Shown here: positions 11,816-32,000 of the stretch, in pieces
How the letters are laid out: every line of letters starts with the position of its first letter
How positions within the stretch are numbered: the first letter of the stretch is position 1
Position numbers and translations under genes: made by a program
Assembly (NCBI RefSeq): GCF_001457595.1
Contig: NZ_LN831039.1
Coordinates: 1,170,001 to 1,202,000 of the forward strand
Source: Mycolicibacterium smegmatis
Lineage (GTDB): Bacteria; Actinomycetota; Actinomycetes; Mycobacteriales; Mycobacteriaceae
Direction: 5' to 3'
Length of the DNA stretch: 32,000 nucleotides
The notes under the pieces: model-generated
Database searches by the model: none
What the model was told of the DNA's origin: nothing
What the model saw: only the letters and a program-made list of their open reading frames with translations

Positions 11816-11848
11816 ATGATGGTGTCGACGCGTGACGGGATCGGATGA
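11816..11848 (+). CDS. Candidate 8-10 codon upstream ORF (MMVSTRDGIG) whose stop overlaps the yrbEA ATG (ATGA)
   Basis: A strong GGGAGGA Shine-Dalgarno at 11809-11815 is followed by ATG-ATG-GTG (11816, 11819, 11822). The TGA at 11846-11848 overlaps the ATG at 11845-11847. yrbEA has no Shine-Dalgarno of its own. Confidence 0.3.
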   Translation: MMVSTRDGIG

Positions 11849-12714: not shown

Positions 12715-12715
12715 C

Positions 12716-13573: not shown

Positions 13574-13574
13574 C

Positions 13575-17264: not shown

Positions 17265-18382
17265 AACTTCTGAGGAACAAGGTGGCCGCGGCGTTGCTCG
17301 CCGCGGTGGTACTCGGTGCCGTGGTGCTGGCGGTCGGCGGTGCCTATGTGAAGCAGCAGATGGGCGCCATCACCGTTACCGCCCAGTTCGACAGCGCAGC
17401 AGGGCTTTACGAGGGCAATGTGGTCGCGGTCCTTGGCATGCCGGTGGGCGAGGTCAAGAAGATCCGCAACAGGAACGGCTACGTCGAGGTGGAGTTCACG
17501 GTCGACAAGGGCGTCAACATTCCCGCCGACGTCCAGGCTGCCACCATCTCCAATTCGATTCTGACCGACCGCCAGATCGAGTTGACCCCGCCGTACCGGG
17601 GTGGTCCGACGCTGCAGAACAACGCCACGATCGGTTTGAACCGCACCCGCACACCGGTGGAGTTCGCGCGGGTGCTCGATGTTCTCGACAAGCTCGCGGG
17701 TTCGCTGCGCGGTGACGGCAAGGGCAACGGCCCGATCGCCGACGTACTCGGTGCCGGCGCGTCCATCGTCGACGGCAACGGCCAGCAGATGAAAGACGCG
17801 CTGGGCGAACTGTCGAACGCGTTGCGGCTCAGCTCAGATCGCGGGCAGGTCACCAAGGATCAGCTGACCACGATCGTGCGTAACCTGAGTGCGCTGTCGC
17901 AGGCCGCGGCCGACAACGACGCCATGATGCGCGAATTCGGCTCCTCCGTGCGGGCGTTGAGCCAGATCGTCGCCGACGAGGATCTGGGCAGCGGCACCAC
18001 CGGCAAGAAGATCAATGAGGTGCTCACCCACACCGGGCAGGTGCTCGAAACCCACCGCGACGCCATCAAGGATCTGGTCGCCAACGGTGACGTCGTGCTG
18101 AACACCGTCGCCGTCGACCACGAACGCGACGTGAAGGAGCTGCTCGACATCGCACCGATGACCTTGGACAACCTGTACAACGTCGCCGACAAGAAGAACG
18201 GCGCGTTGCGGGTGAAGGTGGTCACCGACAAGCTGCTGTTCGACAATCAGCTGATCAAAGAGGTCTGCAACATGATGGGTCTGCGCCAATTGGGCTGCAG
18301 CACCGGCACGCTGCAGGACTTCGGGCCTGACTTCGGATTGAGCTCCATGCTCGACGGACTTGCGGCGATGGGGCAGAAGTGA
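17261..18382 (+). CDS. mceD: Mce protein D, 373 aa
   Basis: ATGA overlap with mceC. Transmembrane helix AAALLAAVVLGAVVLAVGG. MlaD core GLYEGNVVAVLGMPVGEVKKIRN. Confidence 0.9.
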   Translation: MKLLRNKVAAALLAAVVLGAVVLAVGGAYVKQQMGAITVTAQFDSAAGLYEGNVVAVLGMPVGEVKKIRNRNGYVEVEFTVDKGVNIPADVQAATISNSILTDRQIELTPPYRGGPTLQNNATIGLNRTRTPVEFARVLDVLDKLAGSLRGDGKGNGPIADVLGAGASIVDGNGQQMKDALGELSNALRLSSDRGQVTKDQLTTIVRNLSALSQAAADNDAMMREFGSSVRALSQIVADEDLGSGTTGKKINEVLTHTGQVLETHRDAIKDLVANGDVVLNTVAVDHERDVKELLDIAPMTLDNLYNVADKKNGALRVKVVTDKLLFDNQLIKEVCNMMGLRQLGCSTGTLQDFGPDFGLSSMLDGLAAMGQK

Positions 18383-19659
18383 TGGCAGCTTCACCGAAAC
18401 GTCTACGGAAAGTTCGTCTGGTCGCGGCGTTCGCGATGACGGTCATCGTCTCCGGCTGCGCCACAAACGGTCTGGCCGATCTGCCGTTGCCCGCCCCCGG
18501 TGTGGGCAGCGGCGGGTACCGGATCACCGCGATCTTCTCCAACGCGCTGAACCTGCCCGCCAACGCCAAGGTCAAGCTCGCCGGCGCCGACATCGGCGAG
18601 ATGGACTCCATGGTCGCCCGCAACTACACCGCGGTGACCACGTTGCGGATCATGGAAGGCGTGCGACTGCCCGAGGGCAGCACTGCCGAGTTGCGGTCCG
18701 CGACACCACTCGGCGATGTGTTCATCGCCATCAAACCTCCCGCCCCGGTCGAGCCAGGCACGCCGTTGCTCAAAGACGGTGACACCATCGACCTGGACGC
18801 AACCGCCGCCGCGGCCACGGTCGAATCGGTGCTGAGTTCGGCGGCGATCCTCGTCAACGGCGGAGCCGTGCGCAACTTCACCAACCTCATCAACGGCATG
18901 GGCAAGGCGACCGGCGACCAGGGCCAGGCGTTCGGCAACCTGATCCGCAAGACCAACAACACGCTGGCGACACTGACCGCGCGGTCGGAGGAGATCTCGA
19001 CCGCGATGACCGAGACATCACGCCTGGCACAACAGATTTCGGCCAAGAACCAGGCGCTCAGCGATGTGATGGCGCAGGCCCGTCCCGCCACCGACACGCT
19101 GGCGGCCCACACCACGCAGATCGCGGACCTGGTCACCCAGATCGGCGACGTGTCCGACCAGCTGCGCAAGTTCCCGTCGATCGCGGGGGCCGACACCAGC
19201 GGCCGCAGCGTGATCGCCGACGCCAACACGGTTGCGGGAGCGTGGAATGACGTCGCGCTTGCCCCCGATGCGACCCTCTATGCGCTCAACCGGCTGCTGC
19301 CGCCGTTCATCAAGTCGATGAGTTCCGGTGCCATCTCGCTCGACGCGAGCGTCGACCGCCTCATCCTCGGCTCCACACCCGACATCGGCTTCGCAGGCGA
19401 TCAGGGGTTGCACGGTCCCAAGCGCCACGATTGGCACCAGTTGGTCGGCACGCTCAAGTACACGTTGCTGCGCCTGCAGGAGCGAGTGGTGGGCCAAGGC
19501 CCAGGTGTGCCACAGGTTCCGGTGATCCCCAGCCCCACCGAGCCCGGCGAGATCATCGTCGATCCCGGCGCGGCCGCGCCGCCCGAAGACGCTCCGGCAC
19601 CCGAACCGGCGCCCGCGGCGCAGGCGCCGGCACCGCTACCCGCTGAGGCCCCGCGATGA
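18379..19659 (+). CDS. mceE: Mce protein E, lipoprotein (LprK/LprN-like), 426 aa
   Basis: GTGATG overlaps the mceD stop. Lipobox TVIVSGC within the signal peptide. MlaD core LPANAKVKLAGADIGEMDSM. Pro/Ala-rich C-terminus. Confidence 0.9.
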   Translation: MMAASPKRLRKVRLVAAFAMTVIVSGCATNGLADLPLPAPGVGSGGYRITAIFSNALNLPANAKVKLAGADIGEMDSMVARNYTAVTTLRIMEGVRLPEGSTAELRSATPLGDVFIAIKPPAPVEPGTPLLKDGDTIDLDATAAAATVESVLSSAAILVNGGAVRNFTNLINGMGKATGDQGQAFGNLIRKTNNTLATLTARSEEISTAMTETSRLAQQISAKNQALSDVMAQARPATDTLAAHTTQIADLVTQIGDVSDQLRKFPSIAGADTSGRSVIADANTVAGAWNDVALAPDATLYALNRLLPPFIKSMSSGAISLDASVDRLILGSTPDIGFAGDQGLHGPKRHDWHQLVGTLKYTLLRLQERVVGQGPGVPQVPVIPSPTEPGEIIVDPGAAAPPEDAPAPEPAPAAQAPAPLPAEAPR

Positions 19660-20912
19660 TCAACGCAGTCGCCGACCGGATCGTCGGCCTCGTCCGCTTC
19701 GGGTACCGCAAGCGGTCCTGGTTGTCTGCGCTCGGGCTGGTGATGACGCTCGTCGTCGCGACGGCGTACTTGTTCTTCGGTGCGCTGCAGGTGAATCCGC
19801 TCGATTCGGACTACCGCCTCACGGTTCAGCTGCCGGAGTCGGCGGGCCTGCTGCCGGATCAGGACGTGACGCTACGAGGTGTGCCGATCGGCCGCGTAGA
19901 ACGTCTCGACATCACGCCGTCCGGGGTCAATGCGATCGTCAAGGTGAAGTCGACGGTGCGGATCCCCGAGGCCAGCGACGTTCGGGTGTCGGGGTTGTCG
20001 CCGGCCGGTGAGCAGTACATCGACTTCATCGACGTGCCCGCCGAGAGTTCGAGCCGGTTCCTGGCCGACGGTGCGGTGATCCGGCAGGGGCAGGCCACTG
20101 TCCCGGTCAGCCTCGCGAATCTGCTGGCCGACGCCGACGGTGCGCTCGGGCAGGTGGACACCGCGAAGATCGAACTGATCAAGCGCGAGTTGAGCCTGAC
20201 CGACGCCGGCCCGCAGAAGCTCGCCGATATCGTCGACGGCGGAACGTTCCTGCTGTCCACGCTCGATTCGGTGCTGCCAGAGACCAGTTCGCTGCTGCGG
20301 ACCGGCCGCGTGGTGTTCACCTTGATGGCCGACAAGAATCCCGGCATCAGCGTCGCCTCGGACAATCTCACCGAAACCTTCACGGGCATGGACAAGATGC
20401 GCGAGGGATACCGTCGACTGACCAACCAGACCCCGGAGACCCTGGCGGCGGTCGACAACCTGTTCGTCGACAACTCCGACACCATGGTGCAGCTCTTGGG
20501 CAATCTCACCACCGCCTCACGGCTGCTCTACCTGCGGGTGCCCGCGCTCAACGCGCTGTTCCCGTCGTACCGCACCTCGGTGCTCGACGCGCTCGGCACC
20601 GCGATCCACGACGGTGGTCTGTGGGGGACGGCCGAACCGTACCCGCGCTACACCTGCGACTACGGCACACCGAAACTGCCGCCGTCATCGGCAGATTTCC
20701 CGGAGCCGTTCATGTACACCTACTGCCGCGACGTCCATCCGGGCGTCCTGGTCCGCGGGGCGAAGAACGCGCCTCGGCCTGCGGACGACGACACCGCGGG
20801 GCCGCCACCGGGCGCTGATCTCGGTCGCCAGACCGACCCCACGCCCAGGGGCCGCTACACCATTCCGACGCCCTACGGGGGACCGACGCTGCCGATCGAA
20901 CCGCCTCGGTAG
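19656..20912 (+). CDS. mceF: Mce protein F, 418 aa
   Basis: ATGA overlap with mceE. Transmembrane helix LSALGLVMTLVVATAYLFFGA. MlaD core GLLPDQDVTLRGVPIGRVERLDI. Confidence 0.9.
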   Translation: MINAVADRIVGLVRFGYRKRSWLSALGLVMTLVVATAYLFFGALQVNPLDSDYRLTVQLPESAGLLPDQDVTLRGVPIGRVERLDITPSGVNAIVKVKSTVRIPEASDVRVSGLSPAGEQYIDFIDVPAESSSRFLADGAVIRQGQATVPVSLANLLADADGALGQVDTAKIELIKRELSLTDAGPQKLADIVDGGTFLLSTLDSVLPETSSLLRTGRVVFTLMADKNPGISVASDNLTETFTGMDKMREGYRRLTNQTPETLAAVDNLFVDNSDTMVQLLGNLTTASRLLYLRVPALNALFPSYRTSVLDALGTAIHDGGLWGTAEPYPRYTCDYGTPKLPPSSADFPEPFMYTYCRDVHPGVLVRGAKNAPRPADDDTAGPPPGADLGRQTDPTPRGRYTIPTPYGGPTLPIEPPR

Positions 20913-20938
20913 CCACGCCCCATACGAAGGAGATGACC

Positions 20939-21625
20939 GTGAAACTCAAAACCGACAAGCGCAGGGATGTCTTCGACGAGGCCGTCGAGGACACCGAGGA
21001 CGCCGAGGTTGAGGCACTCGATGTCGCCGAGTCGGAGGACACCGCAACGGAACCCGAATCCGACGAGGTCACCGGTCCTTCCGGCGAGAAGCCGTCCGAC
21101 AAGCCTTCCGACGAGAAGCCGGCTGAAACGGTCACCAGCCCAAACCAGCGTCGTGGCGTCGTACTGGGCGTTGCCGCAGGCATTCTGGTCGCCGCACTGC
21201 TGGGCGGCGGCGGGTTCGTCGGCTGGCAGCTGTGGCAGACCAAGCAGGTGATCGCGGCCGGAAACCAGGCCAGAGACGCCGCGGTGAACTACGCCCAGGT
21301 GCTCACCAGCATCGACTCGAACAAGGTCGACGAGAATTTCGACCAGGTGCTCGCAGGCGCCACGGGGGAGTTCAAGGACATGTACTCGCAGTCGAGCATG
21401 CAGCTGCGCCAGTTGCTGATCGAGAACAAAGCCACCGCGCACGGCGTGGTGGTGGAGTCGGCCGTGCAGTCGGCGACCAAAAACAAAGCTGTGGTGCTGC
21501 TCTTCGTCGACCAGTCGGTGCAGAACACGGCCGTGCCGGATCCCCGCATCGACCGCAGCCGCATCAAGATGACCATGGAGAAGGTCGACGGGCAATGGAA
21601 AGCAAGCAAGGTCGAGCTGCCCTGA
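20939..21625 (+). CDS. Mce-associated membrane protein (Mam/Mas type): acidic N-terminal region, one transmembrane helix, C-terminal globular domain; about 228 aa
   Basis: GAAGGAG at 20926-20932 is well spaced for the GTG at 20939; the ATG at 20933 directly abuts it and is the alternative start. Layout is an acidic low-complexity stretch, then GVVLGVAAGILVAALLGGGGFVGW, then a roughly 120-aa domain, as in Mce-associated proteins downstream of mycobacterial mce operons. Confidence 0.8.
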   Translation: MKLKTDKRRDVFDEAVEDTEDAEVEALDVAESEDTATEPESDEVTGPSGEKPSDKPSDEKPAETVTSPNQRRGVVLGVAAGILVAALLGGGGFVGWQLWQTKQVIAAGNQARDAAVNYAQVLTSIDSNKVDENFDQVLAGATGEFKDMYSQSSMQLRQLLIENKATAHGVVVESAVQSATKNKAVVLLFVDQSVQNTAVPDPRIDRSRIKMTMEKVDGQWKASKVELP

Positions 21626-21627
21626 GC

Positions 21628-22416
21628 ATGAAGCGTTTCGGCCCTCTCATCGGCGCGGCACTGACCGTCGTCGCGCTCGCAACCGCCGCATCCGCGGGGG
21701 CGTCGGTGGTGTCGTTCTGCGACGACCTCGCCGGCCGGATGGACGGGCCCTACTGTCACCTGTCGATCGAGTCCGACCGCAAGGCGACACGTGACATCAA
21801 GGTCGCGATCCCCGGCGAGCTTGTCGACGACCCCGTGGCGGGCCCCGTGGTGCGCGACTATCTGAGCACGCTTGTGGGCAACTGGATGAAGGCCGGCCAG
21901 AAGATGGTCGCCGACAGCTTCGGCGAGGAGAACTATCAGATCTTCCGGCACGGCGATGCGCTGTCGGTGGTGTTCCGCGAGACCTACCACGCCGACGGAC
22001 CGGACTTCAACAACGCCTATCGCACTTTCACTTTCGACATGGCCGAGGGCCGGCGCCTTCAGCTGGCCGATCTCATGAAGCCGGGTGTGGATCCGTTGAC
22101 CGCGATCCCGCCGCTGGCGCAGCCGTTCATCGTGCAGGCACTCGACCAGGCGCCACCCCCGCACCAGCCGGGCACCTACCCGTTCGTGTTCGATCGCTGG
22201 TTACCCGACAAGGTGTACTCCGGCGCCTACAAGGCATGGGCCCTCACGCCCGACGAACTGATCATCTACATGCCGGATTACCCTGTCGCACGCGACCGGC
22301 CGACCGATTTCACCCCCGGCGTCATGCAGTGGTCGATGGACGGTGGCACCGTGCAGGCACACATCCCGCTCGCCGCGCTCGCCCCGATCCTGCAGCCGCG
22401 CTACGGGGGCGCCTGA
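21628..22416 (+). CDS. Secreted MPT64-like (DUF3298-type) protein, 262 aa
   Basis: ATG lies 2 nt after the Mam stop. Signal peptide MKRFGPLIGAALTVVALATAASAGA. By-eye matches to my recollection of M. tuberculosis MPT64: SFCDDLAGRMDGPYCHLSIES vs TYCEELKGTDTGQACQIQMS; YRTFTFDMAEGRRLQLADLM vs YKAFDWDQAYRKPITYDTLW; a C-terminal ...ALTPDELIIYMPDYPVA... block. Confidence 0.8.
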   Translation: MKRFGPLIGAALTVVALATAASAGASVVSFCDDLAGRMDGPYCHLSIESDRKATRDIKVAIPGELVDDPVAGPVVRDYLSTLVGNWMKAGQKMVADSFGEENYQIFRHGDALSVVFRETYHADGPDFNNAYRTFTFDMAEGRRLQLADLMKPGVDPLTAIPPLAQPFIVQALDQAPPPHQPGTYPFVFDRWLPDKVYSGAYKAWALTPDELIIYMPDYPVARDRPTDFTPGVMQWSMDGGTVQAHIPLAALAPILQPRYGGA

Positions 22417-22568: not shown

Positions 22569-22592
22569 GTTACTTCAACTTAATGAAGTAAC
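22569..22592. promoter_or_regulatory. AT-rich inverted repeat GTTACTTCA-N6-TGAAGTAAC next to a TTGACA -35-like hexamer; candidate operator for the second XRE-cupin regulator
   Basis: Perfect 9-bp arms. TTGACA at 22595-22600. It lies 52-75 nt upstream of ATG 22644, which has a GGGGGAGGA Shine-Dalgarno. Confidence 0.5.
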
Positions 22593-22643
22593 TGTTGACA
22601 TAGTGAAGACGCTGGGGAATGCTTTTCAGCGGGGGGAGGACAG

Positions 22644-23249
22644 ATGGGCAAGGCCAAACCGAATGACAACAAAGCGTTGGTCGACGCCATGCTCGGTGAC
22701 CTCGGGTCACGTATCCGCATGTTGCGCAAGGAGCGTCAACTCACCACAGAGCGGCTTGCGGAGACCGCGGGTGTCAGCGCCGGACTCATCAGCCAGATAG
22801 AGCGCGGCAACGGCAACCCATCCTTCGCCACGCTGGTTCAGCTCGCCCACGGGTTGCAGATGCCCATCGGGCAACTGCTCGAAGCTCCCGAGAGCAAGTC
22901 GGTCGTCGTCCGCAAGAACGAGCGGCGCCGACTGGACGGTCACGGGCTGGCCAACGACGACGGCGGGAGCTACGAGCTCCTAACCCCCGACCTCAACGGC
23001 GCCCTAGAGGCCACCTGGGTGGTGACCCCACCCGGCTACGACACGAGCGCCACGCCGTACCACCACCACGGCGAAGAGTTCGGCATCGTCCTGTCAGGCA
23101 CGAAGGACGTCTACCTGGACGGCATCCGTCACCGGCTCCATGCCGGTGACTCAATCCGGTACGCGTCCAACATCCCCCACTGGTATGTGAACCCCTCCGA
23201 GACCGAGGAGTGCACCGCGATCTGGGTGTCTACACCACCCACCTGGTAG
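22644..23249 (+). CDS. XRE-family HTH regulator with metal-type cupin domain, 201 aa
   Basis: HTH region IRMLRKERQLTTERLAETAGVSAGLISQIERG. Cupin motif 1 YHHHGEEFGIVLSG and motif 2 GDSIRYASNIPHWYVN. Confidence 0.9.
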   Translation: MGKAKPNDNKALVDAMLGDLGSRIRMLRKERQLTTERLAETAGVSAGLISQIERGNGNPSFATLVQLAHGLQMPIGQLLEAPESKSVVVRKNERRRLDGHGLANDDGGSYELLTPDLNGALEATWVVTPPGYDTSATPYHHHGEEFGIVLSGTKDVYLDGIRHRLHAGDSIRYASNIPHWYVNPSETEECTAIWVSTPPTW

Positions 23250-23378
23250 CCCTCCCCGGCCGACACCCGGTCGGGCACACCTCTCCTCACCTCAACAACC
23301 ACCGTTCCGTGCGCACCGACGCGTACGGAGCCGGCCGAGTGCGTCCAAAAACCAGACCGGAATACCGGAGAACCCACC

Positions 23379-24686
23379 ATGGCAAGCTCCCCACGGCCCT
23401 TGGCCGCCACGAACGCAACATCACCAGCGTCGGCCGCGCCGCCGACCAGCCGGCGCACCATGCTCGCGCTCGGCCTCGGCAACACCCTCGAGTGGTATGA
23501 CTGGATGATTTTCGGCCTGCTTGCCGCCTACCTCGGCCCGCAGTTCTTCGCGCCCCAGGACTCCGTGTCGGCCACCCTCGACACGCTCGCCGTATTCGCG
23601 GTCGGATTCGTGATGCGCCCGCTCGGCGGCGTGCTCCTCGGCAACCTGGCCGACCGGATCGGCCGTCGCCGCGTGATGCTGCTGTCGGTCAGCTTGATGG
23701 CGGTCACCACGCTGGTGATCGCCGTGATGCCGACGTACGACACGATCGGTGTGTGGGCCGGCGTCCTGCTGCTGGTGCTGCGGATCTTGCAAGGCGTCTC
23801 GACCGGCATCGAGGCACCCCTGTCGACCGCTTACGCCGTGGAGGTCAACCCCGCCGGGCACGAGGGTCGCGCTGCGGGTTACATCAGCTTCTTCGTCAAC
23901 TTCGGCATCCTGCTCGCCTCGCTGGTCAGTTTCCTCACCAGTTATTTCCTGGGCGGCGACGAGATGGCGGCGTGGGGTTGGCGGGTCCCGATGCTATTCG
24001 GCGCAGCGATGGGCTTTTTCGTCCTGTACTTGCGCCGTACCCTGCCCGAGACACTGCACGATGAGGAGAAAGCCGAACAGAACGCCGGCACCTGGGGCGG
24101 TGTTCTCAAGCACTGGATCGGCCTTCTCGCAATGATTTTCGTAGTGGGCGCCGCGCAGGCCTACAACTACGCCTGGAACGTCGGCTTGCCCAGCCTGGCC
24201 CGCAGCACGTTCAACGAGGACCCCACCAGGATCTTCGCGGCCACAACCGCATTCGGCGTCATCCTGCTGATCGGTTCCATCGTCACCGGCCGTCTCGCCG
24301 ACCGGATCACGCTGTCGAAGGCCTTCATCGGCACGCGCCTGCTGGCCATCCCCGCCGTCTTCATGATGCTGCTCTACGCCGGGCCAGGCATGAGCACGTT
24401 CACCGTCGTGCTGCTCGTCGGCGGCGTGTTCCTGGTGGCGAACATGACCCTCTACAACGTCGTTTCCACCAGCCTGATGCCGAAGTACTGTCGCGCGACC
24501 GGCACCAGCCTGGGCTACGGCCTCGCAGTCGCAGCGTTCGGAGGCACCGCCTCCTACCTGTTGGTCTGGCTGCAACGCATCGGCCAACTCTGGGTCTTCC
24601 CGGCCTACACCGCGACCCTCGCCGCGATCAGCGTCGTCCTCTACATCATCGCCCGCCGCAAGAGCGGGACCTTCGCAGGAAAGTGA
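23379..24686 (+). CDS. MFS transporter, metabolite:H+ symporter (MHS) type, 435 aa
   Basis: N-terminal LEWYDWMIFGLLAAYLGPQFF and GNLADRIGRRRVMLLS motifs, as in KgtP/ProP-like carboxylate symporters. About 12 transmembrane segments. GGAGA Shine-Dalgarno 7 nt upstream. Confidence 0.9.
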   Translation: MASSPRPLAATNATSPASAAPPTSRRTMLALGLGNTLEWYDWMIFGLLAAYLGPQFFAPQDSVSATLDTLAVFAVGFVMRPLGGVLLGNLADRIGRRRVMLLSVSLMAVTTLVIAVMPTYDTIGVWAGVLLLVLRILQGVSTGIEAPLSTAYAVEVNPAGHEGRAAGYISFFVNFGILLASLVSFLTSYFLGGDEMAAWGWRVPMLFGAAMGFFVLYLRRTLPETLHDEEKAEQNAGTWGGVLKHWIGLLAMIFVVGAAQAYNYAWNVGLPSLARSTFNEDPTRIFAATTAFGVILLIGSIVTGRLADRITLSKAFIGTRLLAIPAVFMMLLYAGPGMSTFTVVLLVGGVFLVANMTLYNVVSTSLMPKYCRATGTSLGYGLAVAAFGGTASYLLVWLQRIGQLWVFPAYTATLAAISVVLYIIARRKSGTFAGK

Positions 24687-24694
24687 GTGCACCC

Positions 24695-26095
24695 ATGAAC
24701 ACCTCTGAGCTCGCCATCAGTAGCGATCAGCTGGACGCACCAATCGTCAGGCGCTCCGACGTGGTTGTGGTCGGCGGCGGTCCGGCCGGCGTGAGCGCCG
24801 CGGTGGCCGCGGCCCGCAGCGGCGTCGACGTGACTCTCGTGGAGCGCTATTCAGCGCTCGGGGGGCTTGCCTCCGGCGGGATGGTCCTGGTGCTCGACGA
24901 CATGGTGAACGGCAACGAGATCACCGTGCAAGGCATCGTCGACGAATACGTCGAGCGTATGGCCCGTCGTAACCACGCGGTCTACCCGCCGCGCGAAGAC
25001 TGGCACGCCGCGACCGAGCTGTGGAACAAGTGGGGTCGCTACGGCCTCTTCAACTTCCACTCCCACACCAACCCCAAGCCGATCTGCTACGCGGTCGCGT
25101 TCGACCCTGACGGCTGGAAGATCACCTCCAACGAGCTGGTCCGAGAGGCCGGTGTGCACCTGAGGATGCACAGCTGGTTCTCCCGTCCCGTCATCGACGA
25201 CGGCGCACTCAAAGGTGTTGTCGTCGAAACCAAGGCCGGTCCGCAGGCGATCATGGGCAACGTCGTGATCGACACCACCGGGGACATCGACGTGGCCTCT
25301 CGGTCCGGAGCGCCCTACGAGCACGACAAGTATCTGGTCACGCTCGTGTTCCGCCTGGGAGGTGTCGATACCGACGCCGCCGAGAGGTTCGAGCAGGAGA
25401 ACCCGCGTGAGGCCCGCGCGATCAACCGCCGCATCAAGCGGCTTCTCGGTGGAGCTTGGGAGTTGTGGTGGCTGAAGACACCGTTGCCCGGCGTGGTGTG
25501 GTGCAACACCCCGCACATGACCGGCTTCGACGGGGCGGACCCCGAGTCGCTGACGAACGCCGAGTTCGCCGCGAGGGAGCGAATCGACAACGCACTGACG
25601 GCCATCCGCGAGGATCTGCCCGGGTTCGAGAACGCCTACATCCTCGACGTCGCACAGCAGATGGGGGTGCGGCAGACACGGCTGCTGCGGGGTGAATACG
25701 TCGTCACCAAGGACGACGTGGTCAACCGGCGCCATTTCAGCGACAGCGTCGCCCGCGGCCGGGACTACTACACGCCCTACCGGTCTCTACTTCCTCGCGG
25801 GGTGGACCAGCTGCTCGTCGCCGGCCGCCACTACTCCGCGACGCCGGAGGCGCAAAGGATGTCACGCGAGATCCCACCTTGCATGGCACAAGGGCAGGCC
25901 GTCGGCATCGCTGCGGCGCTCGCCGTGGACAAGGGGCTCACCGTTCGTGAAGTCCCCACAAGCGAAATCCAGACGAGGATGCGCGACCAGGGCGCCGACC
26001 CCGGCGACCAGCCGTCCGCCAACGCCACGATCGACGAGGGCAGCGTGGCCCCCGCCGACCACTGCCCCGACCACCACAAGGAGACCGTCCGATGA
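24695..26095 (+). CDS. FAD-dependent oxidoreductase (FAD_oxidored / GIDA-like dinucleotide-binding fold), about 466 aa
   Basis: DVVVVGGGPAGVSAAVAAARSGVDVTLVER is a GxGxxG motif ending in an acidic residue; GDIDVASRSG region follows. An alternative GTG at 24683 overlaps the MFS stop (GTGA). Confidence 0.8.
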   Translation: MNTSELAISSDQLDAPIVRRSDVVVVGGGPAGVSAAVAAARSGVDVTLVERYSALGGLASGGMVLVLDDMVNGNEITVQGIVDEYVERMARRNHAVYPPREDWHAATELWNKWGRYGLFNFHSHTNPKPICYAVAFDPDGWKITSNELVREAGVHLRMHSWFSRPVIDDGALKGVVVETKAGPQAIMGNVVIDTTGDIDVASRSGAPYEHDKYLVTLVFRLGGVDTDAAERFEQENPREARAINRRIKRLLGGAWELWWLKTPLPGVVWCNTPHMTGFDGADPESLTNAEFAARERIDNALTAIREDLPGFENAYILDVAQQMGVRQTRLLRGEYVVTKDDVVNRRHFSDSVARGRDYYTPYRSLLPRGVDQLLVAGRHYSATPEAQRMSREIPPCMAQGQAVGIAAALAVDKGLTVREVPTSEIQTRMRDQGADPGDQPSANATIDEGSVAPADHCPDHHKETVR

Positions 26096-27273
26096 TCAGC
26101 GCCCTCGACGGAGTCGTCGTCCTCGACTTCACCCAGGTCTACATGGGTCCCAGCTGCACGCAGATGCTCGCCGACTACGGCGCCGAGGTGATCAAGGTCG
26201 AGCGCCCGAAAGTCGGTGATTTGAGCCGGAATTCGTTCCCGGACCCCGCAGGACAGGACAATCCGGTGTTCTTCTCGATCAACCGCAACAAGCGCAGCAT
26301 CACCGTCGACACCCGCACCGACGCAGGCAAGGACGTCATCCGCGACCTCGTACGGCGGGCCGACGTGGTAGTCAGCAACTTTCGGCACGGCGTCATCGAA
26401 CGCATGGGTTTCGGCTACGAAGAGTGCAAGCAACTCAACCCGCGGATCGTCTGGGCCTCCGGAACCGGCTTCGGCGAGACAGGGCCCTACGCCCACAAGG
26501 GCGGACAAGACGCGATCGCCCAGGCGTACTCCGGGGTGATGTGGCGCCGCGCCGACGACGCCACTCCGCTGACGGTCTACCCGACCACGTTGTGTGACTA
26601 CACCACGGGTATGCACCTCGCCCAGGGAATCCTGCTCGCGTTGCTCGCTCGGGACCGCACCGGCGAAGGCCAGAAGGTGCAGGTCAACATGTACGACTCG
26701 ATGCTGCACATGCAGATGCAGGAGGCCGCCGGCCAGCTGAACCGCGGCGAGGAGATCAACTGGGCCGCAATGCCATTGACTGGGGTCTTCGAGACGACCG
26801 ACGGCGCCGTGTGCATGGTCGGAGCGTTCAAGGAAAACCCACTCCGTGACATCTCGAAAGCCCTCGGGTTCGACGAGGACCTCTCCACCAGACCGGGCTT
26901 CGACACTCTGGAAGGACAGATCGAGCATCGAAGCGAACTGCAGGAGATCTTCCGCCGACGGTTCGCCCAAGACACCACTGAGCATTTCGTGTCTCGCCTG
27001 GAGGAGCAGGACATCCTCTGCGCACCCGTGCGCACCCTCAAAGAAGCCCTCGACGATCAGCAGACTGTGTGCAACGGCATGGTCGTGGAAATGCACCACC
27101 CGCACGCCGGCACCGTCAAGGTGCTCAACGCGCCGATCCGCCTGAGCGGCACGCCGAACACGACCCGCCGCCCGGCGCCGATGCTAGGCGAACACAACGA
27201 GGAGATCCTGCGCGAGCTCGGATACTCCGACGAGCAGGTCGCCGCCCTCCTCGACGAGGGGACAGTCCGATGA
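26092..27273 (+). CDS. Family III CoA-transferase (CaiB/BaiF/Frc type), 393 aa
   Basis: LDGVVVLDFTQVYMGPSCTQMLADYGAEVIKVERPKVGDLSR signature, with the conserved Asp region GGQDAIAQAYSG. ATGA overlap with the upstream gene; AAGGAGA Shine-Dalgarno. Confidence 0.9.
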   Translation: MISALDGVVVLDFTQVYMGPSCTQMLADYGAEVIKVERPKVGDLSRNSFPDPAGQDNPVFFSINRNKRSITVDTRTDAGKDVIRDLVRRADVVVSNFRHGVIERMGFGYEECKQLNPRIVWASGTGFGETGPYAHKGGQDAIAQAYSGVMWRRADDATPLTVYPTTLCDYTTGMHLAQGILLALLARDRTGEGQKVQVNMYDSMLHMQMQEAAGQLNRGEEINWAAMPLTGVFETTDGAVCMVGAFKENPLRDISKALGFDEDLSTRPGFDTLEGQIEHRSELQEIFRRRFAQDTTEHFVSRLEEQDILCAPVRTLKEALDDQQTVCNGMVVEMHHPHAGTVKVLNAPIRLSGTPNTTRRPAPMLGEHNEEILRELGYSDEQVAALLDEGTVR

Positions 27274-28076
27274 GCGAGAAGACCCGAACGGGGACCGACG
27301 AGATCCGCTACGACGTGAAAGGCCACGTCGCCCGCGTCACCTTCGACCGCCCGCATGTGCTCAACGCGCTCGACGCGAAGAGCACCCAGCGGTGCAACGA
27401 GATCTGGGATCAGATCGAAAACGACCCCAGTGTTCACGTCGTGGTGGTCACCGGCGCGGGCGAGAAGGCGTTCTGCACCGGCGCCGACATGTCGGTCGGC
27501 GGAGTCGGCAAGACCGGCGTTGACTACTGGGCCAGTCTCGACCCGAACGGGTTCGCGGGACTGTCGCTGCGTGAAACGCTCGACGTACCGGTGATTGCGC
27601 GGGTCAACGGCTACGCACTCGGGGGTGGGATGGAGACCGTGCTCGGCGCAGACCTCGTGATCGCCGCGGAGCACGCCACATTCGGCCTCACCGAGCCGCG
27701 GGTAGGCCGCGTTCCGCTGGACGGCGGCATGGTCAAGCTCCGCGAGCGGATTCCGCACACGCAGGCGATGTCTTTGCTGCTCACAGGGCGGAAGGCTTCG
27801 GCGCAGGAGATGGCCGACATGGGCCTGGTCAACGAGGTCGTGCCCATGGCCGAGCTCGACGCAGCCGTCGACCGTTGGGTGGACCAGATCCTCGCGTGCG
27901 CGCCCACCTCGTTGCGCGCGATCAAGCAGGTCGTCACCCGCACTGCCCATCTCTGCCCGAGGGAAGCGCATGCCGCGCGGCTGCCGGCGTTGATGGAGGC
28001 CCTGGTCAGCCCGAACGCCACCGAGGGTGTCGAAGCCTTTCAACAGAAACGCAAGCCGAACTGGAGTGACCGATGA
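27270..28076 (+). CDS. Enoyl-CoA hydratase/isomerase (crotonase) family protein, 268 aa
   Basis: VTFDRPHVLNALD, VVVTGAGEKAFCTGADM, GYALGGGMETVLGADL and FGLTEPRVG motifs. ATGA overlap upstream. Confidence 0.9.
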   Translation: MSEKTRTGTDEIRYDVKGHVARVTFDRPHVLNALDAKSTQRCNEIWDQIENDPSVHVVVVTGAGEKAFCTGADMSVGGVGKTGVDYWASLDPNGFAGLSLRETLDVPVIARVNGYALGGGMETVLGADLVIAAEHATFGLTEPRVGRVPLDGGMVKLRERIPHTQAMSLLLTGRKASAQEMADMGLVNEVVPMAELDAAVDRWVDQILACAPTSLRAIKQVVTRTAHLCPREAHAARLPALMEALVSPNATEGVEAFQQKRKPNWSDR

Positions 28077-28960
28077 ACAAGTTGATGCAACCCGGCGTGT
28101 GGGGTGTGCTGGCCACTCCTTTCTCCGGGTCCACCCTCGAGGTCGACGACAACGGTGTCGCCGCGCTGGCCGAACACGCCCAGGCAGTCGGCGCCACCGG
28201 ACTGACCGTGCTGGGTGTCTTCGGCGAAGCAGCCAAGCTGTCATGGGAAGAACGGCGCCGGGTCCTCGAGACGGTGCTCGACACCACCGAGCTGCCCCTC
28301 GTGGTGGGCTGCACCAGCCTGGCCACCGCGCCTGTCATCGACGAGGCGCGGATGGCCGTCGAGCTGGTCGGTGAACGGCTCGCCGGGGTCATGGTGCAGG
28401 CCAACAGCGCCGACCGCGCCACCCTCGCAACGCATTTGCGCGCGGTCAACGAAGCCACCGGCGCCGACGTCGTCGTGCAGGACTACCCGATCATCAGCGG
28501 TGTTCATGTGTCCGCCGGTGTGCTGGGTGACGTGGTCGCCCAATCGCCGTTTGTGACCGCGGTCAAGGCAGAAGCGCCTCCCACTCCGGTGGCCGTTGCC
28601 GAGCTGACCAGACGCGTCGACGTTCCCGTCTTCGGCGGGTTGGGCGGGATCAACCTGCTCGACGAGCTCGCGTGCGGCTCAGCCGGCGCCATGACCGGGT
28701 TCTCTTACCCCGAGGCGCTGGTCGCCACGGTCCGCGCCTGGCGGGACGGGGATCGGATGAAGGCCCGGGCTGCGCTCCTGGACCACCTGCCCCTGATCAC
28801 GTTCGAGCAGCAGGTGGGCATCGCGCTGGCAGTGCGCAAGGAGTGTTTGCGCCGACGCGGACTGATCGCCGAGTCCGGCGTACGACCACCCGGGCGGAGC
28901 CTGCCCGACTGCCTGGCACCTGTCCTGGCCACACACATCGACACCGTCGAAGGACGTTGA
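28073..28960 (+). CDS. DapA/DHDPS-family class I aldolase-like enzyme, 295 aa
   Basis: LTVLGVFGEAAKLS corresponds to the GTTGE region (here GVFGE). VVQDYP corresponds to the Tyr motif. VTAVKAEAP offers the candidate Schiff-base Lys. ATGA overlap upstream. Confidence 0.8.
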   Translation: MNKLMQPGVWGVLATPFSGSTLEVDDNGVAALAEHAQAVGATGLTVLGVFGEAAKLSWEERRRVLETVLDTTELPLVVGCTSLATAPVIDEARMAVELVGERLAGVMVQANSADRATLATHLRAVNEATGADVVVQDYPIISGVHVSAGVLGDVVAQSPFVTAVKAEAPPTPVAVAELTRRVDVPVFGGLGGINLLDELACGSAGAMTGFSYPEALVATVRAWRDGDRMKARAALLDHLPLITFEQQVGIALAVRKECLRRRGLIAESGVRPPGRSLPDCLAPVLATHIDTVEGR

Positions 28961-29734
28961 ATGGATCTGAAAATCAAGGACCGCGTCGCGCTCGTGCTCG
29001 CCTCCACCGCGGGCCTCGGAGCGGCGACCGCACGGGCACTCGCAAACGAAGGCGCCCACGTGGTCATCACCGGCCGCAACGCCGAGCGCGCCGAGCGACT
29101 CGCTGCCTCACTGCCCTCGGCGACCGCGGTCCCCGTCGACCTCACCGAACCACGAGCAGTCGAGCATCTGCTCACCGCGACGCGCGAGGCCTACGGCGAG
29201 CCCGACATCGTCGTCCTCAACGGGCCGGGCCCCAAGCCCGGCGCCGCTGCCGACCTGGACGCCGAGGACATCGACACCATCGGAGACCTACTGCTGAAAG
29301 CTCATGTGGCGCTGGTGAAGCGGACCCTGCCGCACATGCGCGCACAGGGCTGGGGACGCATCCTCGCGATCGGCTCAAGCGGTGTGCAAGACCCGCTCCC
29401 GATGCTGGTTGCCTCCAACATCGGACGTGCCGGCCTTGCGGCGTATCTGAAGACCCTCGCCTCCGAGGTGGCCGCCGATGGAGTCACCGTGAACCTGCAG
29501 CTGCCCGGCCGCATCGCCACCGACCGTGTCGCTGCCCTGGACGAGGCTGCCGCCCAACGTCAGGGCTGCAGCCCCGAGGAGGTCCGTGCCGCCTCGCAGG
29601 CGAAAATCCCGGCCGGTCGCTACGGGACGCCCGACGAATTCGGTGCGCTTGCCGCTTTCCTGTGCAGTTCCGCAGCCTCGTACATCACCGGCAGCGCCGT
29701 GCGCTGCGACGGCGGCATGCTCGCCCACCTCTAG
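28961..29734 (+). CDS. Short-chain dehydrogenase/reductase family protein with non-canonical cofactor and catalytic motifs, 257 aa
   Basis: SDR layout and length. The glycine motif reads LASTAGLG rather than TGxxxGxG. The position of YxxxK reads S-N-I-G-R by eye alignment (SNIGRAGLAAYLKTLASE vs YSASKAGVIGLTKSLAxE). ATG immediately follows the upstream TGA. Confidence 0.8.
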   Translation: MDLKIKDRVALVLASTAGLGAATARALANEGAHVVITGRNAERAERLAASLPSATAVPVDLTEPRAVEHLLTATREAYGEPDIVVLNGPGPKPGAAADLDAEDIDTIGDLLLKAHVALVKRTLPHMRAQGWGRILAIGSSGVQDPLPMLVASNIGRAGLAAYLKTLASEVAADGVTVNLQLPGRIATDRVAALDEAAAQRQGCSPEEVRAASQAKIPAGRYGTPDEFGALAAFLCSSAASYITGSAVRCDGGMLAHL

Positions 29735-29776
29735 CAGTCCTTGAGCCATACCAACCGAAAGACCCCAGGAGACAAC

Positions 29777-31204
29777 ATGATCAACGCCCAGAACCTGATC
29801 GCAGGGGCCTGGGTCGGCGACCCTGATTTCGAGCGCCGCAACCCCGCGAACCCCGACGAGGTCGTCGCCGTCGCGCCTTCCGCCGGCGCCGCAGACGTGC
29901 ACGACGCAGTGGCTGCGGCCTCGGACGCCCAGCCGGGCTGGGCTGCGCTGAGCCCCACGCAGCGTGGCGCCATCCTCATGGATGCTGCCGACCTGCTCCG
30001 CCGGCGACACGAAGATGTTGCGACCGACCTCACCCGCGAGGAGGGCAAGACCCGCGCCGAGGCGATGGGGGAGGTGCGCCGCGCCATCGACGTGCTGCGG
30101 TTCTTCGGCTCTGCTGGTTGGCGAACAGGCGGCGAGACGCTGCCAAGCACGATGCCGAACACCAGCGTGCACACCCGCCAGGAACCCCTCGGCGTGGTCG
30201 GGCTGATCACCCCGTGGAACTTCCCGATCGCGATCCCCGCCTGGAAGATGGCTCCGGCCTTGGTGTCCGGCAACGCCGTGGTGATCAAGCCTGCCGAGCT
30301 CACACCCTTGTCGGTCAACCACCTGGCCACCGCCCTGGTCGATGCCGGACTCCCCGCCGGAGTGCTCAACGTGGTGCACGGCTCGGGTTCTCTCGCCGGC
30401 GACGCGCTGATCCGCCACCAAGATGTCGCCGCCGTGTCCTTCACCGGGTCCACCGGCGTGGGCATGGCGATCCGTGACGTTCTCAATGCGCGCAATGCGC
30501 GTGTGCAGCTCGAGATGGGCGGCAAGAACGCCTATTTGGTGCTCGACGACGCCGACGTCGAGGCCGCCGCGGCCACCGTCGCAGCAGGCGCCTTCAGTCT
30601 CACCGGCCAGGCCTGCACCGCGACATCGCGGGTTTACGTCACCCCGGGTGTCCGAGAGGTCTTCGTCAAAGCCCTTCGCGAGAAGGCGCGCGCCATCGAA
30701 CCCGGCAACGGTCTGGACCCCGGCACCACCATGGGCCCCGTGGTCTCCGAGGCCCAACTTGCCAAGGATGTCGCGGCGATCCGTGCCGCGTCCGAAGCGG
30801 GGTTCGACGTCGGAGAGGTCCGCGACCACGAGGCCCAGTTCCTTGCGCCGGTTGTGGTCTCAGGCGTCTTGCACGATCATCCGCTTGCCACCGATGAGGT
30901 GTTCGGTCCGGTCGTCGGCGTCATCGATGTGGCGGACTACGAACAGGGACTGGACCTTGTCAACGACTCGTCTTATGGGCTCACGGCCGGGATCTGCACC
31001 CGGGACCTGGGCAAGGCCTACCACTTCGCCGCGCGGGCGCAGGTCGGCGTGGTCAAGATCAATCGTCCGACGACCGGGCTCGACCTGAACGTGCCGTTCG
31101 GCGGGGTTCGCGACTCCTCGACCAACACATTCCGCGAGCAAGGCGAGCGCGCCGTGGACTTCTACACCTGGACCAAGAGCGTCTACATCGGCCACGACCT
31201 GTAA
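29777..31204 (+). CDS. NAD(P)-dependent aldehyde dehydrogenase, 475 aa
   Basis: FTGSTGVG, LEMGGKNA (catalytic Glu) and GQACTATSRVYV (catalytic Cys) motifs. AGGAGA lies 4-5 nt before the ATG at 29777. The track start at 29741 is a TTG without a Shine-Dalgarno. Confidence 0.9.
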   Translation: MINAQNLIAGAWVGDPDFERRNPANPDEVVAVAPSAGAADVHDAVAAASDAQPGWAALSPTQRGAILMDAADLLRRRHEDVATDLTREEGKTRAEAMGEVRRAIDVLRFFGSAGWRTGGETLPSTMPNTSVHTRQEPLGVVGLITPWNFPIAIPAWKMAPALVSGNAVVIKPAELTPLSVNHLATALVDAGLPAGVLNVVHGSGSLAGDALIRHQDVAAVSFTGSTGVGMAIRDVLNARNARVQLEMGGKNAYLVLDDADVEAAAATVAAGAFSLTGQACTATSRVYVTPGVREVFVKALREKARAIEPGNGLDPGTTMGPVVSEAQLAKDVAAIRAASEAGFDVGEVRDHEAQFLAPVVVSGVLHDHPLATDEVFGPVVGVIDVADYEQGLDLVNDSSYGLTAGICTRDLGKAYHFAARAQVGVVKINRPTTGLDLNVPFGGVRDSSTNTFREQGERAVDFYTWTKSVYIGHDL

Positions 31205-31243
31205 GCGCCACCTCGTCCCGTTACCGCTTCCGCCGAGAGCGAC

Positions 31244-31280
31244 GAAAATGCCGTGTGGACACGCTCCACGCGGCATTTTC
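31244..31280 (+). terminator. Stem-loop terminator of the catabolic operon
   Basis: gaaaatgccgtgtgg (31244-31258) pairs with ccacgcggcattttc (31266-31280): 15-bp stem with one G-U, loop acacgct. It starts 40 nt after the aldehyde dehydrogenase stop. Confidence 0.6.
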
Positions 31281-31311
31281 GTTCCTCTCGACGCTAAATC
31301 GGGATAAGCCC

Positions 31312-31411: not shown

Positions 31412-32000
31412 ATGCGGCCACCACGTTCGGTGTTCGCACCGATCGGAGCACTACTGGCCACAGCCGCCCTGGTGCTGACGGCGTGCGGATCATCGGGGAA
31501 TTCCGCACAGACCGTCGACGGCAAGACCGTGGTCCGATATCAGGGCTGGACCGGTCAGGTCGAATTCCAGGAGCTCGCTGAAGAACTCGGCTATTACAAC
31601 ATGATCCAGCTGGACTGGGTCGGCAACACCACCAGCGGGCCACAGGACATCCAGTCGGTGGCCACCGGCGATATCGACGTCGGTTCGGCGTTCAACGGTG
31701 CCGTGGTGAAACTCAACGCCGCGGGCGCCCCGATCACCTCGGTGCTCAGCTCATACGGCGCCGACGAGGGCGAGTACACCGGGTACTTCGTGCTGGAGGA
31801 CAGCCCGATCCGTTCCGCGCGTGACCTGATCGGCAAGAAGGTCGGCATGAACACCCTCGGCGCACACCACGAGTTCCTGACTCGCGAGTGGCTCGCTCAG
31901 CAGGGCCTGTCCAACGACGAGATCAAGACCGTGACGCTGACGGTCGTGCCACCGGTGAACACCGAACAGGCGTTGCGGGAGAAGCAGATCGACGTCGCGG
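31412..32000 (+). CDS. ABC transporter substrate-binding lipoprotein (NitT/TauT, SsuA-like family), 3'-truncated by the window edge
   Basis: GGGGGGAGGG Shine-Dalgarno, then ATG 31412. Signal peptide with lipobox LVLTAC. The frame stays open to the end of the window with strong G/C third-position bias. The segment GKKVGMNTLGAHHEFLTREWL is typical of sulfonate/nitrate-type binding proteins. Confidence 0.75.
   Translation, partial: MRPPRSVFAPIGALLATAALVLTACGSSGNSAQTVDGKTVVRYQGWTGQVEFQELAEELGYYNMIQLDWVGNTTSGPQDIQSVATGDIDVGSAFNGAVVKLNAAGAPITSVLSSYGADEGEYTGYFVLEDSPIRSARDLIGKKVGMNTLGAHHEFLTREWLAQQGLSNDEIKTVTLTVVPPVNTEQALREKQIDVA

Follow-up and report, generated by a model that had tools for sequence, protein, structure and literature searches.

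A patchily distributed, CoA-dependent catabolic operon of Mycolicibacterium smegmatis (MSMEG_1151-1158) combines known enzyme superfamilies in a way that matches no described pathway

Which compound does Mycolicibacterium smegmatis break down with eight genes whose products belong to well-known superfamilies, in a combination that has not been described? The question is raised by positions 22644-31204 of a 32,000-nucleotide stretch (the window), 1,170,001-1,202,000 of its 6.98-Mb, single-contig genome, where the list of open reading frames (ORFs) and Pfam give, all on the + strand and in this order, an XRE-cupin regulator, a major facilitator superfamily (MFS) transporter of the metabolite/H+ symporter (MHS) type, a PF12831 flavoprotein, a family III coenzyme A (CoA)-transferase, a crotonase, a DapA-family protein, an atypical short-chain dehydrogenase/reductase (SDR) and an aldehyde dehydrogenase (ALDH). 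The annotations in PMC4222082 parallel these eight families in order, which identifies the genes as MSMEG_1151-1158 (Table 1). We conclude that the operon MSMEG_1151-1158 is real, is conserved and expressed, and brings known enzyme superfamilies together in an undescribed combination. As to what it does, we give about an even chance to a reading in which this is one accessory operon, induced by nitrogen limitation, that would break down a carboxylic acid as its CoA ester; the acid would probably be an aminated N-heterocyclic or nucleobase-like compound, and the route would end near 2-oxoglutarate.

An earlier note on this DNA, made from the letters alone, had assigned the eight proteins to these families and had read translational coupling into their junctions. 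The family assignments were all correct, Pfam assignment of each protein (one of the checks that the note had asked for) agreeing with them, and every junction was seen again: a GTGA overlap of the MFS and flavoprotein genes at 24683, ATGA overlaps at 26092, 27270 and 28073, and a TGA abutting an ATG where the DapA-like gene meets the SDR gene (28958-28963). The ALDH gene starts with a TTG at 29741, after a gap of 6 nucleotides, and 129 nucleotides separate the regulator gene from the MFS gene. The overlapping junctions and published arrays are the basis on which we take the eight genes to be co-transcribed. On microarrays, nitrogen-starved wild type had 3.7-4.4-fold more transcript of msmeg_1151, 1152, 1153, 1155, 1156 and 1157 than a glnR deletion strain did (PMC4222082), and a second published study found MSMEG_1151 to be 2.96-fold glnR-dependent under nitrogen limitation. 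In a study of zinc homeostasis MSMEG_1155 and 1156 shifted together, by 4.6- and 5.0-fold.

The cluster is not peculiar to this strain. Close relatives of its DapA-like protein number in the hundreds in actinobacterial genomes and metagenomes, and 80 genome loci around such relatives were taken for comparison; about 70 of these loci have the cluster in conserved order, and all eight genes are present in 63 of the 80, at 50-95% identity. The genera concerned are Mycobacterium, Nocardioides, Terrabacter, Intrasporangium, Nocardia, Nonomuraea, Microbispora, Amycolatopsis, Pseudonocardia, Streptomyces, Streptosporangium, Arthrobacter, Paenarthrobacter, Pseudarthrobacter and Cnuibacter. That most of the 80 loci repeat this gene order argues that the arrangement did not come about by chance. 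A relative of the DapA-like protein was found in just one of 24 other genomes sampled from the same genus, that one being the divergent form of locus L091, and a close orthologue of the flavoprotein in one of 400 other, evenly sampled genomes of Actinomycetota. Such rarity outside the related loci marks a patchily distributed cluster: the operon is an accessory cluster of scattered soil actinobacteria.

The route encoded here matches no described pathway. Function was assigned by the function-level (equivalog) cut-offs of NCBIfam, none of which is reached by any of the eight proteins. Literature searches by gene number found the operon genes named only in transcriptome lists, and those by enzyme combination, or for dipicolinate degradation with a CoA-transferase, returned nothing relevant. 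The earlier statement that no pathway could be named from the sequence thus holds: there was no equivalog match and no characterising paper to be found. The readiest comparison is with carnitine metabolism, as a family III CoA-transferase and a crotonase form its CaiB/CaiD core, and public annotation calls MSMEG_1155 a 'carnitinyl-CoA dehydratase'. Like the operon, Escherichia coli caiTABCDE (with fixABCX) uses these two enzymes on the CoA ester of an imported small acid, with the CoA probably recycled from product to substrate and with a flavoprotein redox step attached. Unlike the operon, which has a PF12831 flavoprotein and an MFS transporter, the carnitine system has an acyl-CoA dehydrogenase and a BCCT transporter, and nothing in it corresponds to the DapA-like/SDR/ALDH tail. 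The proposal that MSMEG_1151-1158 is the carnitine/crotonobetaine pathway, or that of itaconate, under another name is effectively refuted by the family scores: the CoA-transferase reaches 141.4 bits against the CaiB model (NF002914, cut-off 413) and the crotonase 177.7 bits against the CaiD model (NF002936, cut-off 500). Pfam finds among the eight genes neither an acyl-CoA dehydrogenase (CaiA type) nor a BCCT antiporter (CaiT), and neither the MaoC-type hydratase nor the citramalyl-CoA lyase of the itaconate system (Ict/Ich/Ccl). Both systems are without counterparts for half of the operon's genes, and neither pathway has a place for the DapA-like protein, the SDR or the ALDH.

Of these last three enzymes, the DapA-like protein and the ALDH point towards 2-oxoglutarate. 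By its sequence the DapA-like protein is a member of the DapA/NAL class I aldolase superfamily. In the PDB it matches the uncharacterised 3dz1 best (116 bits) and L-2-keto-3-deoxyarabonate (L-KDA) dehydratase next (7c0c/3fkk, 64 bits only); Lys165 aligns with the lysines of 3dz1 and 7c0c, in a K-x-E context that L-KDA dehydratase shares, and the protein keeps the family tyrosine (QDYP/DYP), where L-KDA dehydratase has an alanine (DAP). Across 15 orthologues Lys165 (in VTAVKAE), Tyr138 and the GVFGE motif do not vary. The lysine-biosynthetic DapA was tried as an identity and rejected, at 58.6-58.8 bits against a TIGR00674 cut-off of 206 and with GVFGE in place of GTTGE; the genome has its canonical dapA (250 bits) elsewhere, at 2.83 Mb. 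The SDR is not of the classical kind, with LASTAGLG for TGxxxGxG and SNIGR for the Tyr-x3-Lys pair, and the SN..R pattern is found also in its best solved relative, 2z1n. On all three points the earlier note had judged well: it had singled out the lysine and the GVFGE motif, had thought a lysine-biosynthesis enzyme unlikely, which the low score and the canonical dapA elsewhere bear out, and had called the SDR atypical, as the SN..R replacement confirms. The ALDH has its catalytic motifs (GQAC, with Cys292, and LEMGGK), and its top NCBIfam models are 2,5-dioxovalerate dehydrogenase (NF052305, 528.9 bits, under the cut-off of 750) and GucD (NF042993, 471.7 bits, under the cut-off of 770), the next family following at 367 bits. 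Since the DapA-like protein resembles L-KDA dehydratase and the ALDH best matches 2-oxoglutarate-semialdehyde dehydrogenases, the tail would run to 2-oxoglutarate.

A similar tail is known from the hydroxyproline, Weimberg and glucarate routes, in which a flavin dehydrogenase or a sugar-acid dehydratase comes first, then a DapA-family deaminase or dehydratase and then a 2-oxoglutarate-semialdehyde dehydrogenase, and the likeness extends to a flavoprotein upstream and to the probable end product, 2-oxoglutarate. The operon differs from them in its CoA-transferase and crotonase, in tail enzymes that stay below the equivalog cut-offs, and in being without an epimerase, DAO-type dehydrogenase, lactonase or enolase/IlvD dehydratase; a Pfam scan of the eight genes gave no hydroxyproline 2-epimerase and no DAO-type D-hydroxyproline dehydrogenase. 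The operon might nevertheless be a Weimberg- or glucarate-like oxidative route for a nitrogen-free, hydroxylated C5/C6 (di)carboxylic acid. The CoA-transferase and crotonase would then stand in for the sugar-acid dehydratase and take a 2,3-dihydroxyacyl-CoA to a 2-keto-3-deoxy acid, the DapA-like protein would be a keto-deoxy-acid dehydratase and the ALDH a 2-oxoglutarate-semialdehyde dehydrogenase, with the flavoprotein and SDR tuning oxidation state or stereochemistry. The nearest characterised relatives of both tail enzymes (L-KDA dehydratases for the one, 2,5-dioxovalerate dehydrogenase and GucD for the other) agree with such a scheme, as does the resemblance of transporter and transferase to dicarboxylate-handling proteins. 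So do two other loci. In another Mycolicibacterium (L091:8516-12359) the DapA-like/SDR pair has an L-2-hydroxyglutarate oxidase equivalog (530 bits, over the cut-off of 299) on one side and an FAH-family hydrolase on the other, and in Nocardiopsis (L008:1154-10888) a lone, 73% identical DapA-like gene stands beside a divergent CoA-dependent hydroxy-acid cluster of an MFS gene, two MaoC-like hydratases, an oxalyl-CoA decarboxylase-type thiamine diphosphate enzyme, a family III CoA-transferase, a GntR regulator and an FGGY kinase. We regard this route as unlikely: it finds no integral role for the flavoprotein, though that is the best conserved protein and is fixed beside the transferase and crotonase, and it leaves unaccounted for two kinds of nucleoside-type deaminase genes and a ThiY-like binding protein in related loci (described below), as well as the response to nitrogen limitation.

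The preferred reading, of a CoA ester broken down to 2-oxoglutarate, draws its first half from the transporter, the CoA-transferase, the crotonase and the flavoprotein. The best NCBIfam match of the transporter is the MHS model TIGR00883 (281 bits, under the cut-off of 443). The closest solved full-length relative of the CoA-transferase is succinate-hydroxymethylglutarate CoA-transferase (9br6, 219 bits), its N-terminal half is closest to formyl-CoA transferases, and its best NCBIfam models are dicarboxylate transferases; as read from the sequence, its motif GGQDAIAQAYSG holds the expected aspartate, which we take, from what is known of family III, to be the catalytic one. In the crotonase both hydratase-type glutamates are present (GGGMET and FGLTEPRVG, aligned by motif and not by structure), so that the reaction is most likely a simple hydration or dehydration at the beta carbon; the protein stays under every NCBIfam equivalog cut-off, and ring hydrolases are not among its best matches, the oxepin-CoA hydrolase and BadI models giving only about 136 bits.

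Of all the proteins of the cluster the flavoprotein is the most strongly conserved, with 71-92% identity in all loci but one and a mean column identity of 79%. A sequence search of the PDB gave relatives only over its N-terminal FAD-binding (dinucleotide-binding) fold, and the Pfam DAO family matches only residues 26-66. Foldseek searches with the AlphaFold model, which has a predicted local distance difference test score (pLDDT) of 65, returned geranylgeranyl-reductase, FixC and PHBH folds at template modelling (TM) scores of about 0.4, the FixC-type subunit of 7koe being among the better matches, and look-ups in the ESM Atlas gave generic names only. As many as 1154 sequence clusters match the flavoprotein at E below 1e-30, and our search of the literature on PF12831 found no assigned reaction. 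Some database entries label its orthologues 'invasion protein', which presumably reflects the E. coli IbeA family. The contexts of distant PF12831 representatives lie mostly on contigs too short to inform.

The same genome holds a second PF12831 gene at about 4.137 Mb, with 401 bits to the family and 32% identity to the flavoprotein of the window. It comes immediately behind genes for an MFS transporter and an acyl-CoA synthetase (L099:10584-15021; about 4.1336-4.1380 Mb), and across an IS110 element from it are genes for two more family III CoA-transferases, an acyl-CoA dehydrogenase and a GntR regulator. The adjoining acyl-CoA synthetase gene links the flavoprotein family to CoA esters, and this supports the view that PF12831 flavoproteins act on such esters.

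If the flavoprotein were an acyl-CoA desaturase, the operon could carry out a beta-oxidation-like hydroxylation of a C6 2-oxo- or 2-amino-dicarboxylate, for example 2-oxoadipate or 2-aminoadipate from lysine. CoA would be placed on the distal carboxyl, the flavoprotein would desaturate and the crotonase hydrate to a 4-hydroxy-2-oxo acid, on which the DapA-like protein would act as a class I pyruvate aldolase, leaving the released semialdehyde to the ALDH. The transferase, which in full-length comparison is closest to glutarate/adipate-type SUGCT and to succinate-glutarate and mesaconate transferases, and the hydratase type of the crotonase are in keeping with this, and chemical inference indicates that only with a C6 skeleton would the added hydroxyl fall on C4 of a 2-oxo acid, the type of substrate that DapA-family aldolases take. 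Elsewhere, moreover, the DapA-like/SDR pair is found with an aminotransferase and 2-hydroxyacid dehydrogenases; at L092:8462-12469, in another family, a D-2-hydroxyacid dehydrogenase flanks it on one side and a class I/II aminotransferase on the other, and a peptide/opine-type binding protein adjoins. The operon, however, contains no aminotransferase or amino-acid dehydrogenase, its ALDH is nearest to 2-oxoglutarate-semialdehyde and not to malonate-semialdehyde dehydrogenases (MMSDH, 292 bits), and literature precedent for a PF12831 acyl-CoA desaturase was not found. As the deaminases and the ThiY-like importer also go unexplained, we think this conversion improbable.

Two further precedents were considered and set aside. 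A reverse-DapA route from dipicolinate fails on chemical grounds, as the crotonase would hydrate C3/C5 whereas 4-hydroxy-tetrahydrodipicolinate needs the hydroxyl at C4. Thiodipropionate catabolism in Variovorax was rejected as a precedent for heteroatom release, its cleavage step being unassigned and its 'Fox' flavoprotein being a 2-hydroxyacid dehydrogenase.

Whether the two halves of the operon belong to one pathway can be judged from their behaviour in the compared loci. The DapA-like/SDR pair occurs without the CoA-dependent trio of flavoprotein, transferase and crotonase in L091, in L092 and in Streptomyces L007, and in Streptomyces L006, L039 and L040 the two halves of the operon are divergently arranged. 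These loci could speak for two separate modules, merely co-transcribed in M. smegmatis, with the importer, flavoprotein, transferase and crotonase serving one acid and the DapA-like protein, SDR and ALDH another 2-oxo acid. We give such a division little credence. The halves remain neighbours in about 70 loci from many genera, rearranged ones included, a 4-nucleotide ATGA overlap at 28073 joins them, genes of both are co-induced to an equal degree, and a DHDPS-family gene also adjoins distant PF12831 relatives. The conservation of the whole set across genera and the co-induction of six of its genes thus sustain the earlier claim of a single pathway. The differing contexts of the DapA-like/SDR pair suggest instead that the pair acts on a 2-oxo acid whose origin varies between organisms, and in this operon it is likely that the CoA-dependent trio supplies that acid.

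The nature of the substrate is suggested by genes that other bacteria have added to the cluster. When the flanking ORFs of the 80 loci were clustered, deaminases were the sole kind of widely recurring extra gene. An adenosine-deaminase-like gene (PF00962) is present in 22 of the 80 loci, from many genera, where it follows the ALDH gene; it abuts the ALDH stop codon in Mycobacterium sp. 21AC1 (L010:13134-14111, +), and some Streptomyces loci have it between the SDR and ALDH genes. Arthrobacter and its relatives have instead, in 20 loci, an unrelated homotetrameric deaminase of the cytidine/blasticidin-S type, with CAE and PCGVC motifs and the putative blasticidin S deaminase 3b8f as its best solved match. 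Its gene, of which L046:3663-4163 (-) and L079, about 13225-13647 (+), are examples, lies downstream of the divergent MFS gene, and in Cnuibacter it comes right after the ALDH gene, in the slot that PF00962 has elsewhere. The adenosine-deaminase-like proteins score 176-255 bits against a TIGR01430 cut-off of 216.55 and fall far under the specific models, and the cytidine-deaminase-like protein is under every NCBIfam cut-off. Both folds hydrolyse exocyclic amidine-type amino groups of pyrimidine or purine rings. The recruitment of two unrelated deaminase folds to one cluster suggests such a group on the substrate or on a fragment released from it. In Pedococcus cremeus a three-gene ATP-binding cassette importer takes the place of the MFS symporter (L028:3581-6378), and its NMT1/THI5-type binding protein (L028:3581-4705) is nearest in the PDB to 4nmy and ThiY. 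ThiY binds formylaminopyrimidine. This importer and the response to nitrogen limitation are supporting hints for a nitrogen-ring substrate.

Several observations weigh against an aminated nitrogen-ring acid, a route to 2-oxoglutarate, or both. The M. smegmatis cluster itself is without a deaminase gene, which makes the deaminase clue a hint and not a proof, and the deaminases could be regulatory hitch-hikers. Nor does nitrogen control prove a nitrogenous substrate, as GlnR-dependent genes include carbon-uptake genes. The effect of GlnR, a modest one of about fourfold, is probably indirect: a scan of the window for GlnR motifs was at chance level (84 matches against 99 expected), and the main text of a paper that lists 53 GlnR sites from chromatin immunoprecipitation sequencing does not name the operon genes. 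Upstream of the regulator gene, GlnR-motif matches appear only with one mismatch. The DapA-like protein and the ALDH are both below all function-level cut-offs. With its moderate model and generic two-domain matches, the flavoprotein could catalyse oxidation, reduction or oxygenation. The DapA-like/SDR pair and the trio each occur alone, and could be two modules with separate substrates.

Closer control seems to lie in the cluster itself. The regulator gene is kept at the head of the cluster across related loci, and 2 nucleotides downstream of a perfect palindrome ahead of it (GTTACTTCA-N6-TGAAGTAAC) is a TTGACA hexamer (22595-22600). A CTTCA-N6-TGAAG or TGAAG-AT-CTTCA core recurs about 85-100 nucleotides upstream of orthologous regulator genes, among the upstream regions of L010-L089 in Mycobacterium, Nocardioides, Intrasporangium, Pseudonocardia, Amycolatopsis and Paenarthrobacter. 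The position of the palindrome and the recurrence of its core point to control by the cluster's own XRE-cupin protein, of which the palindrome is probably the operator. PuuR, the best NCBIfam match of the regulator, was rejected as its identity (59 bits against a cut-off of 211).

From these elements we propose the following course of events. As long as no substrate is present, the XRE-cupin protein would probably keep the operon repressed by way of the CTTCA-N6-TGAAG palindrome. The acid would be imported by the MHS symporter and made into a CoA thioester by the family III transferase, the donor probably being a dicarboxylyl-CoA such as succinyl-CoA, or the CoA ester of the pathway's own product. 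The PF12831 flavoprotein would carry out a redox reaction on the thioester, and the two-glutamate crotonase would add or remove water at the beta carbon, so that a ring is opened or a heteroatom expelled, or a 4-hydroxy-2-oxo-type acid results once the CoA has been handed on. The DapA-like enzyme, forming a Schiff base through Lys165, may then dehydrate, deaminate or cleave the acid to an oxo-aldehyde; the SDR would adjust one carbonyl or hydroxyl, and oxidation of the aldehyde by the ALDH would yield a 2-oxo-dicarboxylate, 2-oxoglutarate being the likeliest. Many relatives have a nucleoside-type deaminase that may strip the exocyclic amino group beforehand, or act on the released fragment.

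A more specific form of this scheme is that the operon encodes an undescribed CoA-thioester route for an aminated N-heteroaromatic or nucleoside-like acid (a pyrimidine-, pterin- or nucleoside-derived one, for instance), the flavoprotein working on the acyl-CoA, the crotonase opening the ring or expelling nitrogen, and the DapA-like protein funnelling the carbon to 2-oxoglutarate; this we put forward tentatively, as possible and no longer as an even chance. The benzoyl-CoA (Box) and phenylacetyl-CoA (Paa) routes offer a likeness in logic only. In these the acid is made into a CoA thioester, its ring is attacked in a flavoprotein-dependent step and opened hydrolytically by a crotonase-fold enzyme, and an ALDH deals with the semialdehyde. 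None of their families is in the operon, which would activate its acid by a transferase and not a ligase, and whose likely substrate is an N-heterocycle and not a benzene ring. In its logic, then, the operon resembles a cross of CaiB/CaiD, the hydroxyproline/Weimberg tail and the aerobic hybrid CoA routes, while being a member of none.

Were the N-heteroaromatic reading true, it would give a first biochemical function to the very numerous PF12831 (IbeA-type) family and to an operon core that occurs in hundreds of species, and thioester and Schiff-base chemistry would meet at a new junction, with a CoA-dependent step supplying a DapA-family enzyme. A compact operon with its own regulator, putative operator and transporter, in a genetically tractable organism, makes the question of the substrate directly testable. 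Its solution would supply an annotation for the same enzyme trio in many other bacteria, and would tell how a further class of nitrogen-bearing acids is scavenged by soil actinobacteria. Newly added here are the nitrogen-limitation control, the accessory deaminase genes, and the independent mobility of the DapA-like/SDR pair and of the trio.

Table 1. Features of the MSMEG_1151-1158 operon, with positions in the window, and one accessory gene at another locus.
Feature	Gene	Length	Position	Strand	Evidence
Perfect palindrome, 9-bp arms; putative operator			22569..22592	.	Inverted-repeat search
XRE-family helix-turn-helix (HTH) + cupin regulator	MSMEG_1151	201 aa	22644..23249	+	Pfam HTH_31 45.6 bits, Cupin_2 60.9 bits
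MFS transporter, metabolite/H+ symporter type	MSMEG_1152	435 aa	23379..24686	+	Pfam MFS_1, Sugar_tr
PF12831 FAD_oxidored (IbeA-type) flavoprotein	MSMEG_1153	470 aa	24683..26095	+	Pfam 293.6 bits
Family III CoA-transferase	MSMEG_1154	393 aa	26092..27273	+	Pfam CoA_transf_3 (PF02515) 378.7 bits, profile 1-366/366
Crotonase-fold enoyl-CoA hydratase	MSMEG_1155	268 aa	27270..28076	+	Pfam ECH_1 191.5 bits
Divergent DapA-family Schiff-base enzyme	MSMEG_1156	295 aa	28073..28960	+	Pfam DHDPS (PF00701) 52.5 bits, cut-off 22.1
Atypical SDR	MSMEG_1157	257 aa	28961..29734	+	Pfam adh_short_C2 150.5 bits
NAD(P)-dependent ALDH	MSMEG_1158	487 aa, from TTG	29741..31204	+	Pfam Aldedh (PF00171) 488.9 bits
Long hairpin, probable terminator			31240..31288	+	RNA fold -36.7 kcal/mol, z = -7.3, 0/200 shuffles as stable
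PF00962 gene, further example			L049:11607-12722	+	

A hairpin 3' of the ALDH stop codon probably closes the operon as a terminator, and about 120 nucleotides past this hairpin begins a gene for an NMT1-like binding protein (31412-31999 and onward, +). Lying beyond the hairpin, this gene is outside the operon and seems to belong to a separate transporter locus; it was rejected as an orthologue of the Pedococcus importer, with 30% identity over just 83 residues. On the 5' side, positions 11845-22416 hold a complete yrbE/mce-type lipid-uptake operon, unrelated to the catabolic cluster, with an MlaE permease, a run of five MlaD/Mce genes and then a DUF3298 protein. MSMEG_1141-1150 are cholesterol-induced according to a published paper.

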